A stretch of 64,000 bases of DNA from Escherichia coli O127:H6 str. E2348/69 (GTDB lineage Bacteria; Pseudomonadota; Gammaproteobacteria; Enterobacterales; Enterobacteriaceae), in assembly GCF_000026545.1 (NCBI RefSeq), contig NC_011601.1, one strand, 5' to 3'. The notes under the pieces were generated by a model. It did no database searches, was not told the DNA's origin, and saw only the letters and a list, made by a program, of their open reading frames with translations. The position numbers and the translations under genes were made by a program. Below are positions 237-39,924 of this stretch, piece after piece. Position 1 is the first letter of the stretch. Each line of letters starts with the position of its first letter.

Positions 237-306
237 TTACGCATAAATAAATATGAAATTATAATCACAAAATATGCATAAAAAATCACTGAATGGCAAT
301 CAGAAA

Positions 307-870
307 TCAGCGATGCAGAAAATTAGCCAGCAGTTGATGTCCTTGTTCGCTAAGAATACTTTCTGGATGGAACTGCACACCTTCCAGATCCCACTGGCGA
401 TGGCGAATCCCCATAATCTCGCGGGTTTCGCTCCAGGCCGTCACTTCAAAGCACTCCGGTAATGAGTCAGGTTCCACCACCAGCGAATGGTAGCGTGTCA
501 CGGTGAGTGGATTTGCCAGCCCCTTAAATACGCCCACACTATTATGTGTAATCGGCGAGGTTTTGCCGTGCATGACCTTTGCGGCGCGCACAACTTTGCC
601 GCCAAATGCCTGCGCCATTGCCTGATGACCGAGGCAGACGCCAAGAATCGGCAAGCGTCCGGCATAGTGACGAATAACGTCAAGGGAGATCCCGGCTTCA
701 TCTGGCGTACAGGGGCCGGGTGAGATGGCAATTTTTTGTGGTTTAAGGGCGTCGATATCCGCCAACGTCAACGCATCGTTGCGCTTAACCAACACATCCG
801 CCCCCAGTTCACAAAAGTACTGGTAGAGGTTCCAGGTAAAAGAATCGTAGTTATCAATAAGCAGGATCAT
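307..870 (-). CDS. pabA: Aminodeoxychorismate synthase glutamine amidotransferase subunit (PabA), 187 aa
   Basis: ORF 307..870 (-), 187 aa, begins [19 protein letters not shown] and contains the class-I amidotransferase GVCLGHQ catalytic-Cys motif; length matches PabA. Confidence 0.95.
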
Positions 871-901
871 GGCGGCTCCGGTACGAAAGAACCGCGCTAT
901 T

Positions 902-1504
902 TTACTCAGATTCCCCGGCTTCGCTTACCACTTTGCTAAATATCATCTGCAGCGCGGTGAGATCCCCCATTGCCCCATTCTGATTTGCCTGATTCCAGGC
1001 CTCTTTTTCGATACCCTGCCAGCTCAGTTGATATCCGGCATGAATCGCCAGTTGCTCGAAGAAGATCCGCTGTGCCAAACCACTTCCCACACGGAAGGGA
1101 TGCAGCACGTTGATTTCACAATAGTAATGCGCCAACCGCTCGACGAATTTATCTTTCTCAAGGCTAGTCAGATACTTCTCTTCCTCCAAATCCTGCATCA
1201 GGGCATTGCCCTCTTTTTCGAGATAGGCAAAGTGGCAGAACGGCGTATCTCCCTGATAAATATCGACTTCGCGCAGTTGCCCCGCCCAGTCGAAAATATC
1301 CTGATACAACTGGCGATGAAGAGTACGCAAATGCGGTAAACCGCGCACCAGCGGACCAAGCTCAATGGTCGCAGCACGCAGCGCCGTCATTTCGTAAGCG
1401 ACCTGTTCCAGCCGCTGCTGCTGGCGGATGTTGAGCTTGTTACGCATGATATCGAGACCAGGATAAAGATACGGATCGCGCCCTTCGCCGAATTTATCGC
1501 TCAT
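902..1504 (-). CDS. fic: Fic-family protein (cell filamentation protein Fic), 200 aa
   Basis: ORF 902..1504 (-), 200 aa, begins [26 protein letters not shown]; Fic-domain His motif region present ([12 protein letters not shown]); pabA-fic-yhfG synteny. Confidence 0.93.
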
Positions 1505-1661
1505 AGTGCCTCCTCAGCGCTTCAAGACGCGCTAAAGCCTCTGCGGCAGTAAGAGTGACTAAAGGCATCTCGACGCCTTCAAGACGGCGACTGGCCTGGA
1601 AATTACGATTACGCTGAAGCTCCCAGAGACGGGACTTTTGCTTATCGGTGAGTTTCTTCAC
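1494..1661 (-). CDS. yhfG: Small Fic-associated protein YhfG (putative antitoxin-like partner of Fic), 55 aa, GTG start
   Basis: Minus-strand reading from GTG at 1659-1661 gives [55 protein letters not shown], ending TAA at 1494-1496, which overlaps the fic ATG (1502-1504). A GGAGG ribosome-binding site lies just upstream. Not in the ORF track because it is under 60 aa. Confidence 0.8.
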
Positions 1662-1734
1662 TTGATGCCTCCCTGAACGTGTCCATTTGCCACAAGTATA
1701 AGCGGCAAATCTGGGTTACGCCGGGAGAGCAGAA

Positions 1735-1757
1735 GCGCGGGCAAGATTGCCCGCGCG
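1735..1757 (-). terminator. Possible hairpin terminator downstream of ppiA
   Basis: GC-rich inverted repeat gcgggc...gcccgc between the ppiA stop (1766) and yhfG; the downstream U-tract on the minus strand is weak. Confidence 0.35.
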
Positions 1758-1765
1758 AGAAATCA

Positions 1766-2347
<582 letters not shown>

Positions 2348-2608
2348 TTAACAAACAGAGCAGAAAAAAAGCAAGTGAAGAGATTCTAAATAGCCTTCAA
2401 GAACAAGGCCATCCCTTTACCTAATTTTACGTATCTGAAATATATGTAACCTGAGGATAACTTTTTATTCCGTGATCAAAATCACCTCTTAAAATGCAAT
2501 TTAGCAACCGATTGCAATAAAACATTTAATCAGATCACAAAATCGCCTAAAATCGCCCGCTCGCGGCATAGCCCGCTATGCCATTTTATTTTTGAACGCA
2601 GGCCAATC

Positions 2609-39252: not shown

Positions 39253-39569
39253 ATGTTCACCTTTATTGAACTACAAGGATTTAGCAAACGCCGCCAGTTA
39301 TTGCTACCTGATAAGTAGTTCCGGGCTTTTCAGGAACTACTCATTCAAGATCCCACTGCCGGTGACATTATCGCAGGCACAGGCAGTTTTAGAAAAATTC
39401 GCTGGAACCGTTCTGGAATGGGGAAACGGGGTGCATTCGGATAATTTATTACAACGTAACACGCAATGGCCGAATTTATCTGGCGTTGATTTATCCTAAA
39501 AATGAACAGGATGATTTAACAGAAGAACAAAGAAAGGCATTGAAACTATTGTCCGAGAAGCTGCTTTAA
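39253..39569 (+). pseudogene. Disrupted RelE/ParE-superfamily (HigB-2-like) toxin gene: in-frame TAG at codon 22 plus a -1 frameshift
   Basis: Frame 1 from ATG 39253 reads MFTFIELQGFSKRRQLLLPDK* (TAG at 39316-39318) and resumes FRAFQELLIQDPTAGDIIAGTGSFRKIRWNRSGMGKRGAFG*. A different frame from about 39432 reads CIRIIYYNVTRNGRIYLALIYPKNEQDDLTEEQRKALKLLSEKLL*. Together these resemble a roughly 105-aa HigB-2-type toxin (GTGxxRKxR...GKRGGxRxIYY motifs, recalled from memory). The total span is 317 nt, i.e. 318-1. Confidence 0.6.
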
Positions 39570-39627: not shown

Positions 39628-39924
39628 ATGAAAGATGAATTATTTGCTGATCTTCTTGCCAGCGCAGAAGAAATGGTACGCATCGAAAAGGGTGAAGAAA
39701 CGCCTGAACCAGAGCACGTCCATACTTTTAGCGAAATCGATGTAAAAGCGATCCGTGAAGCAACGGGTTTACGTCAGCAAGATTTTGCTGTCGCCGTAGG
39801 GGTAAGTTATGACCTGGTCAAAAGCTGGGAAACCAAACGCCGTCAGCCTACCGGAGCACCCCGAAAATTGCTCCTGCTTTTGCAAGCGAATCCTTTCATT
39901 ATCAATCAATTGAAAACAATCTAA
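39628..39924 (+). CDS. HTH (XRE-like) antitoxin-type DNA-binding protein, HigA-2-like, 98 aa, apparently intact
   Basis: ORF 39628..39924 (+), 98 aa: MKDELFADLLASAEEMVRIEKGEETPEPEHVHTFSEIDVKAIREATGLRQQDFAVAVGVSYDLVKSWETKRRQPTGAPRKLLLLLQANPFIINQLKTI; GGAGG ribosome-binding site 12 nt upstream; HTH segment LRQQDFAVAVGVSYDLVKSWE; lies directly downstream of the toxin remnant. Confidence 0.7.
   Translation: MKDELFADLLASAEEMVRIEKGEETPEPEHVHTFSEIDVKAIREATGLRQQDFAVAVGVSYDLVKSWETKRRQPTGAPRKLLLLLQANPFIINQLKTI

Follow-up and report, generated by a model that had tools for sequence, protein, structure and literature searches.

The deviant Fic protein of the chromosomal yhfG-fic pair in Escherichia coli E2348/69: signature motif, conservation and possible function

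The fic gene of enteropathogenic E. coli encodes a Fic-domain protein whose signature loop departs from the motif of the AMP transferases, and the locus thus raises the question whether this protein still transfers AMP, uses a different substrate, or has a role outside catalysis. The window, i.e. the complete 64-kb stretch of DNA analysed here, is the exact reverse complement of NZ_CP059840.2:373054-437053 of E2348/69 (EPEC O127:H6), in which yhfG and fic are both annotated, and is part of the ordinary core chromosome, extending from argD/pabA to rtcB. Elsewhere in the window, RefSeq annotates the pseudogene hofP (25319-25722, minus strand), which is frameshifted in E2348/69, and a RelE/ParE-family toxin pseudogene with a frameshift and an internal stop (39253-39569, plus strand), which adjoins nadS (39628-39924) between envZ and pckA.

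The fic reading frame belongs to the Fic/DOC domain family, with a match to Pfam Fic (PF02661, E 3.9e-13, 50.5 bits with a cutoff of 24) over residues 58-152, covering the core helices and the signature loop, and it scores 421.7 bits (cutoff 181) with the NCBIfam equivalog NF007672, 'putative adenosine monophosphate-protein transferase Fic'. The best-matching PDB chains were 5JFZ_A and 5JFF_A for Fic (E 6.6e-129 and 8.8e-128) and 5JFF_B and 5JFZ_B for YhfG (E about 1e-29), the latter protein also matching Pfam YhfG (PF10832, E 1.3e-24). Both PDB entries are crystal structures of the K-12 Fic/YhfG complex (Stanger, Harms, Dehio and Schirmer 2016, PMC5033356), so that the structure of the complex, suggested as a check in the original prediction made from the E2348/69 sequence, had already been solved for the K-12 proteins; in the same study the genes were renamed ecficT and ecficA and placed in class I of the Fic family. 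Taking all evidence together, we consider it probable that the window locus is this chromosomal ecficA-ecficT pair and that EcFicT is not a conventional AMP transferase, with a YhfG-gated enzyme as the favoured reading.

Table 1. Features of the yhfG-fic locus and of related loci (positions are those of the window unless stated otherwise).
Feature	Position	Strand	Description	Basis
pabA	307..870	-	31 nt downstream of fic, same strand	ORF list, annotation
fic (ecficT) CDS	902..1504	-	200 aa + stop; class I Fic-domain protein	ORF list, RefSeq annotation of E2348/69
Fic signature loop	1067..1102	-	residues 135-146 of Fic	translation, alignment, per-site tallies
Gly55 codon (GGT)	1340..1342	-	mutated in the classical fic-1 allele (G55R); wild type in the window	translation
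yhfG stop / fic start overlap	1494..1504	-	11 nt, ATGAGCGATAA	read from sequence
yhfG (ecficA) CDS	1494..1661	-	55 aa + stop, GTG start; FicA-type antitoxin homologue	ORF list, RefSeq
YhfG residues 24-29	1575..1592	-	SRRLEG, [S/T]xxxE[G/N] inhibition motif	translation
Ribosome-binding site	1672-1668	-	GGAGG before the yhfG GTG start	read from sequence
Putative promoter region upstream of yhfG	1686..1709	-	TATACT at 1700-1695	by eye
Imperfect inverted repeat	within 1686..1709	-	TTTGCCGC-N8-GTGGCAAA around TATACT	read from sequence
GC-rich inverted repeat	1735..1756	-	GCGCGGGCAA-TC-TTGCCCGCGC, just after the ppiA stop	read from sequence
Fused yhfG-fic ORFs	L009:1011-1613; L010/L011:2501-3085; L012/L013:2501-3103		outside the window	

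The signature loop and AMP transfer

Exact translation of the minus strand within the 200-aa Fic ORF confirmed that the signature loop (Table 1) is non-canonical, and this translation together with the 100% identity to the annotated genome ruled out a translation or annotation artefact. In HMMER alignments to AMPylating relatives the loop lies opposite HPFREGNGRAQR of Pseudomonas Fic-1 (8WT0) and HPFREGNGRTLR of VbhT, from which the changes in the window protein can be read as E to V at residue 139, N to S at residue 141 and R1 to L at residue 143; this is the alignment to characterised Fic proteins by which the original prediction was to be checked. The conserved histidine, which had been predicted to be present, is His135, and in comparison with the canonical AMP transferase motif the H, F, both G and R2 positions are retained, whereas D/E, N and R1 deviate. 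With regard to the claim that the acidic residue, the GNG and the first arginine are all replaced, this holds for the acid (Val139) and for R1 (Leu143), but in the GNG only the Asn is lost, and the anion-binding loop retains its two glycines (GSG).

The motif finding is correct but not new, as the motif, the crystal structure and the absent AMP-transfer activity were all published in 2016; with the motif deviation, its structural consequences and its phylogenetic distribution already described, there is nothing new about the window itself. The published description has Leu at R1, a hydrophobic residue in place of the acid, and Ser in place of Asn in about half of the clade, and assigns His135 as general base and Phe137 as a structural residue (PMC5033356). 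Neither auto- nor target-adenylylation by EcFicT was detected, even with the E28G variant of EcFicA, and this lack of activity was attributed to the Leu at R1 and to the hydrophobic residue replacing the Mg-binding acid, which in the structure speak against binding of ATP (PMC5033356). Similarly, EcFic (b3361) did not AMPylate E. coli GyrB and is absent from the ParE modifiers listed by Lu et al. 2020 (PMC7479194). A functional assignment of EcFicT after 2016 was not found in the literature, and in June 2026 Chen et al. still called the biochemical mechanism of EcFic elusive (PMC13327609). As V139 and L143 replace the ATP-Mg2+ ligands and Asn141 has become Ser, EcFicT is not a conventional AMP transferase, and this part of the original prediction agrees with the negative assays as well as with the homologue tallies and dN/dS values given below; the ATP-based transfer assays that it called for are thus already in print, with a negative outcome.

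It is very improbable that EcFicT is nevertheless an AMP or NMP transferase which acts on a specific target or under special conditions such as high temperature, cAMP or stationary phase. The RefSeq and NCBIfam name still has it as a putative adenosine monophosphate-protein transferase, the adenine pocket is apparently present in the structure, and the phenotype of the fic-1 allele (G55R) depends on cAMP and 43 C (PMC5033356); however, auto-AMPylation was absent even without the inhibitory Glu, and with GyrB unmodified and EcFic missing from the reported ParE modifiers this reading has largely been refuted already. The G55 residue altered in fic-1 is invariant in all 113 full-length Fic homologues compared.

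Distribution, conservation and selection of yhfG-fic

The gene order ppiA-yhfG-fic-pabA at the window locus is also found at Enterobacter and Buttiauxella loci, and vertical inheritance of the ppiA/pabA-flanked fic locus in the Enterobacteriaceae has been described previously (PMC5033356). Of 5426 complete E. coli genomes, 5425 contain the yhfG-fic segment, in nearly all cases as one chromosomal copy. The K-12 pair EcFicT/EcFicA corresponds to it in genes and location, with identical motif, YhfG SRRLEG sequence and 11-nt overlap. Relative to MG1655, the E2348/69 Fic protein has nine amino acid differences (K23R, V35A, L62I, L95I, K110G, T113V, S114G, D118A, N176S), none of these being in the motif or at specificity-determining positions, and there are two amino acid differences between the respective YhfG proteins. 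The dN/dS values of fic ranged from 0.03 to 0.16 among six E. coli alleles (Nei-Gojobori), which indicates purifying selection within E. coli.

Divergence between E2348/69 and K-12 has a hot spot of 22 nt differences in the 200 nt at window positions 1139-1338 (fic residues about 56-122), including the four clustered amino acid changes K110G, T113V, S114G and D118A, whereas ppiA, yhfG and the intergenic region have 0-2 differences per 100 nt. Over the whole gene, fic dS reaches 0.25 between E. coli alleles, and the hot spot could represent old allelic lineages or recombination. At residues 27 and 2, the crystallised EcFicT chains (5JFF_A/5JFZ_A) have His and Gly, in contrast to Arg and Ser in both MG1655 RefSeq (L006:1362-1964) and the window; the discrepancy lies far from the motif and probably stems from the construct or the strain. 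In one complete genome, that of E. coli MS 21-1 (NZ_CP146670.1), fic is split by the IS21-family element ISEc10 (istA/istB, L005:215-3233), and hence fic is dispensable in at least one natural isolate.

The 120 closest homologues (90%-cluster representatives with at least 76% identity, from Escherichia, Salmonella, Citrobacter, Klebsiella and Leclercia) all read H-P-F-R-[LIVF]-G-[SN]-G-[LMI]-[AVT]-Q-R, bar one with Cys at R0. Within the motif, H135, P136, F137, G140, G142, Q145 and R146 are invariant in 113/113 full-length homologues, and this is also true for Y12, T40, G55, Y67, F71, E79 and Y83 outside it; the variable motif positions are 139 (always L/I/V/F), 141 (S in 70, N in 43) and 143 (L/M/I), and 85 of the 200 Fic sites are invariant across genera. 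The Mg-binding acid was missing in all syntenic enterobacterial homologues examined (about 230 sequences). We also searched 1.84 billion 50%-identity representatives exhaustively with HMMER: in the 138 best distant matches with an aligned motif, the canonical HPFR[DE]GNGRxxR was present in 116, which marks the deviant motif as that of a narrow clade. The canonical distant relatives carry E/T/F/Y at the positions equivalent to A36/T40/Y67/F71 of the EcFicT clade. With regard to non-canonical outliers, P0129 (YFFCFGNGLIQC) was discarded as it looks like C-to-T-converted reads, P0126 as frameshifted and several others as fragments.

A narrow deviant clade matches the published inference that EcFicT-like proteins would derive from canonical AMP transferases, with the canonical subgroup 1 regarded as ancestral by Stanger et al. 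2016 (PMC5033356). The nearest relatives outside the clade are indeed canonical, and intermediates retaining R1 exist (HPFRIGSGRAQR, HPFRIGTGRAQR), in a comparison limited by the closest-120 set ending at 76% identity and by the 50% clustering, which collapses the EcFicT clade. The EcFicT-like subgroup 3 was defined by a small or medium-sized hydrophobic residue at R1, a hydrophobic residue after R0, A36/T40/Y67/F71 and location at the ppiA-pabA site (Stanger et al. 2016, PMC5033356), and the window protein belongs to this subgroup, with L143, V139, A36, T40, Y67 and F71 and the ppiA-yhfG-fic-pabA synteny.

The conservation data also bear on whether EcFicT is an enzyme at all. It could be a pseudoenzyme whose fold has been retained, along with the YhfG partner, for binding or regulation without catalysis, such as the sequestration of a protein or metabolite; the conserved His, Gly and Arg would then serve folding and YhfG binding only. 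Loss of both charged ATP/Mg ligands, the negative outcome of all published assays (PMC5033356, PMC7479194), viable knock-outs, the IS-disrupted allele and the location of the fic-1 G55R site far from the active site (PMC5033356) are all in line with this. We nonetheless consider it unlikely, as the active-site lock consisting of R146 and Glu28 of YhfG is also retained. Pseudoenzymes commonly lose the catalytic base over such a depth of divergence, which likewise counts against this reading. His135 is invariant in 113/113 homologues, yet has no structural role described in the accessible part of the structural paper, and the specificity-determining residues line a groove adjoining the signature loop (PMC5033356).

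YhfG, its upstream region and YhfG-Fic fusions

In class I of the Fic family, the inhibitory helix with its [S/T]xxxE[G/N] motif belongs to a second, small protein, the gene of which lies immediately upstream (Engel et al. 2012, as summarised in PMC5033356), and the window locus conforms to this with a separate yhfG directly upstream, the 11-nt overlap and SRRLEG at YhfG residues 24-29. The SRRLEG sequence is exact in 108/120 YhfG cluster representatives and Glu28 is present in 119/120, with the lone exception appearing to be the engineered E28G crystallisation construct from the PDB. In the crystal structure a salt bridge links Glu28 of EcFicA to R146 (R2) of the Fic motif (PMC5033356); both residues are present in the window alleles, the complex having been solved for the K-12 alleles, which are about 95% identical (5JFF/5JFZ). 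The annotation of five further E. coli genomes shows an identical yhfG/fic overlap, and the overlap is consistent with translational coupling, as judged from the gene arrangement. The toxin/antitoxin-like arrangement with an overlapping yhfG, as originally predicted, is borne out by the PF10832 match, the 11-nt overlap and the published EcFicT/EcFicA pair; the title of the 2016 paper says 'toxin-like' (PMC5033356), and no report of toxicity or activity of EcFicT was found in the literature.

Upstream of yhfG, the 1686-1709 region is identical in six E. coli alleles, and the 103 nt preceding yhfG are almost invariant. The imperfect inverted repeat around TATACT could be an operator, and we know of no binding protein for the TTTGCCGC/GTGGCAAA repeat. 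A review table, with reference to Utsumi et al. 1993, the title of which attributes fic expression to rpoS, gives TATACT as the -10 sequence of the stationary-phase Fic promoter (PMC5650638), and we infer that the TATACT at 1700-1695 would be this mapped -10 of the fic promoter. A scan of window positions 250-2500 with the sigma-70 consensus predicted no promoter upstream of yhfG. The GC-rich repeat just after ppiA is likely to be the ppiA terminator, which would separate ppiA from yhfG-fic; it was not flagged in the terminator scan, as it is without a strong T-run.

In Buttiauxella, Dryocola, Scandinavium and part of Enterobacter, yhfG and fic form a single ORF of 194-200 aa with both the Pfam YhfG and Pfam Fic domains. 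At their N-terminus the fusions have the inhibitory helix of YhfG (about residues 1-28, FQAS..L[E/D], with SxxxE or SxxxD kept), followed in frame by the Fic core from about residue 38-48, and DNA alignment shows a deletion of about 165 nt in the fused gene relative to the window. In Buttiauxella noackiae ATCC 51607, GCA_029676565.1 and GCA_017151435.1 the fused gene occupies the ppiA-pabA site and a separate yhfG is absent; the last two assemblies carry a protein to which NCBI gives the name Enterobacter hormaechei. Among 40 cluster representatives of the fusion at least two junction types occur, and these differing junctions together with a quick neighbour-joining distance tree, calculated without support values, suggest at least two independent YhfG-Fic fusions. 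They arose within the EcFicT-like clade by in-frame deletion rather than from class II proteins, although they share the order of helix and then core with Fic proteins of class II, for example FICD and EfFic; the window locus itself is class I, with two separate genes instead of a single chain. The accessible part of PMC5033356 describes a 'distinctive N-terminal region' without DPY motif for the Enterobacter subgroup 2, and a reading of this N-terminus as an antitoxin fusion was not found in that part. The fusions of helix and Fic core argue for the helix-bound state being a working state and not a stored toxin, and against a release mechanism.

Possible activities of the EcFicT-YhfG complex

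The window pair has the fold, length and small upstream antitoxin with SxxxE[G/N] motif in common with Fic-1/AntF (8WT0) and VbhT/VbhA (3SHG, 3ZC7), as well as the Glu-R2 salt bridge and the N-terminal DPY segment (PMC5033356), with E-values of 4.2e-47 for Pseudomonas Fic-1 and about 5e-33 for Bartonella VbhT. However, Fic-1 and VbhT are class I FicT/FicA toxin-antitoxin AMP transferases that have the canonical HPFREGNGRxxR and AMPylate the topoisomerases GyrB/ParE. In the window Fic, the acid is replaced by V, the Asn by S and R1 by L, A36/Y67/F71 stand where Fic-1 and VbhT have E/F/Y, and the published EcFicT lacks AMPylation. The EcFicT gene is also inherited vertically at a fixed chromosomal site instead of being mobile (PMC5033356).

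By analogy to Fic-1-AntF, the closest AMPylating relative with a solved structure, the YhfG-bound complex might be an eraser, i.e. a hydrolase that would remove AMP or another phosphodiester-linked group by means of Glu28. Fic-1-AntF is a deAMPylase dependent on E28 of AntF (PMC13327609), and the pair studied here retains Ser24 and Glu28 in YhfG and His135 and R146 in Fic; as R1 contacts the beta-phosphate of ATP (PMC5033356), it should be unneeded for an AMP-protein adduct, and the natural fusions in Buttiauxella and Enterobacter keep an acid at the Glu28 position, which implies that the helix-bound state is functional. Despite Glu28 being present, the acidic cleft of Fic-1 (E29, E36, E139) is replaced by Q29, A36 and V139 in the window Fic, and among the homologues A/F/V predominate at position 29, A occupies position 36 in 110/113, and the residue at position 139 is always hydrophobic. 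Lack of conservation at three of the four acidic positions in the cleft led us to down-weight the deAMPylase analogy; moreover, deAMPylation by Fic-1-AntF needs a divalent metal (PMC13327609), for which EcFicT lacks the metal-binding acid of the motif, and no AMPylator partner is known in E. coli, all of which makes an eraser improbable.

Deviant Fic motifs can accompany other donors or reactions, as with the kinase Doc and the phosphocholine transferase AnkX (PMC5033356). The window Fic is by sequence closest to the FicT AMP transferases and not to Doc or AnkX, neither of which was among its 29 PDB matches at E up to 0.01, and Doc- or AnkX-like chemistry was rejected as it is without sequence support. 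Furthermore, R1 of AnkX still contacts CDP-choline at its alpha-phosphate (PMC5033356), whereas R1 is lost in the window Fic.

The reading that we favour, and which is the likeliest although we hold it tentatively, is that EcFicT is still an enzyme gated by YhfG but would use a different, non-ATP donor. The yhfG-fic locus is a vertically inherited class I Fic/antitoxin-like pair descended from the FicT AMP transferases, in which both residues expected to hold ATP-Mg2+ have become hydrophobic (D/E to Val139, R1 to Leu143) and Asn141 has become Ser; ATP-Mg would be unable to bind productively once hydrophobic side chains stand in for R1, the ligand of the beta-phosphate, and for D/E, the ligand of Mg. 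At the same time, His135, the loop glycines (a phosphate-binding nest), R146 and the Ser24/Glu28 lock of YhfG appear to have been kept under purifying selection across the Enterobacteriaceae, as does the clade-specific hydrophobic groove of A36, T40, Y67, F71 and V/L/I139. Retention of the His, of the nest, of R2 and of the Glu lock, taken with the conserved groove, points to an active site that is gated and serves another ligand. The donor would be less charged than ATP, partly hydrophobic and phosphate-containing, and EcFicT would modify a hydroxyl group of a target docked on the flap. The structural paper already described this hydrophobic groove (A36, F71, V139, Y67, T40) as conserved and proposed a non-ATP substrate (PMC5033356), and the original suggestion of a different substrate or a non-catalytic role matches that proposal and the negative assays. 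Against a YhfG-gated enzyme, no catalytic activity has ever been shown for EcFicT, fic deletion mutants are viable like the wild type (PMC5033356) and one complete genome has the IS21-family insertion, while the conservation of His135 and the glycines could be structural instead of catalytic, and absence of the Mg acid, as seen in the about 230 sequences, would be unusual for a phosphoryl- or nucleotidyl-transferase.

If EcFicT-like enzymes are active, they may possibly employ an undescribed Fic chemistry, either transfer of a non-nucleotide or partly hydrophobic phosphate-linked group or a de-modification by the helix-bound form, with the Fic-YhfG complex as the working unit; we regard this as a plausible but speculative extension. 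It is hinted at by the invariant His135, Gly-x-Gly, R146 and YhfG Glu28, the hydrophobic groove and the natural helix-Fic fusions, and the transfer part was already proposed in 2016. What is added here is modest: the published pattern was confirmed independently with sequence sets of far larger size, there is evidence for purifying selection among E. coli alleles, and antitoxin-helix fusions were noted in relatives, the latter bearing on whether this module works as a toxin-antitoxin system in the first place. Some 40 years have passed since discovery of this founding member of the very large, protein-modifying Fic family, and it is still without a known biochemical activity; the main clue to such an activity is the deviant motif, and with its substrate identified, a new reaction would join those of the Fic family.
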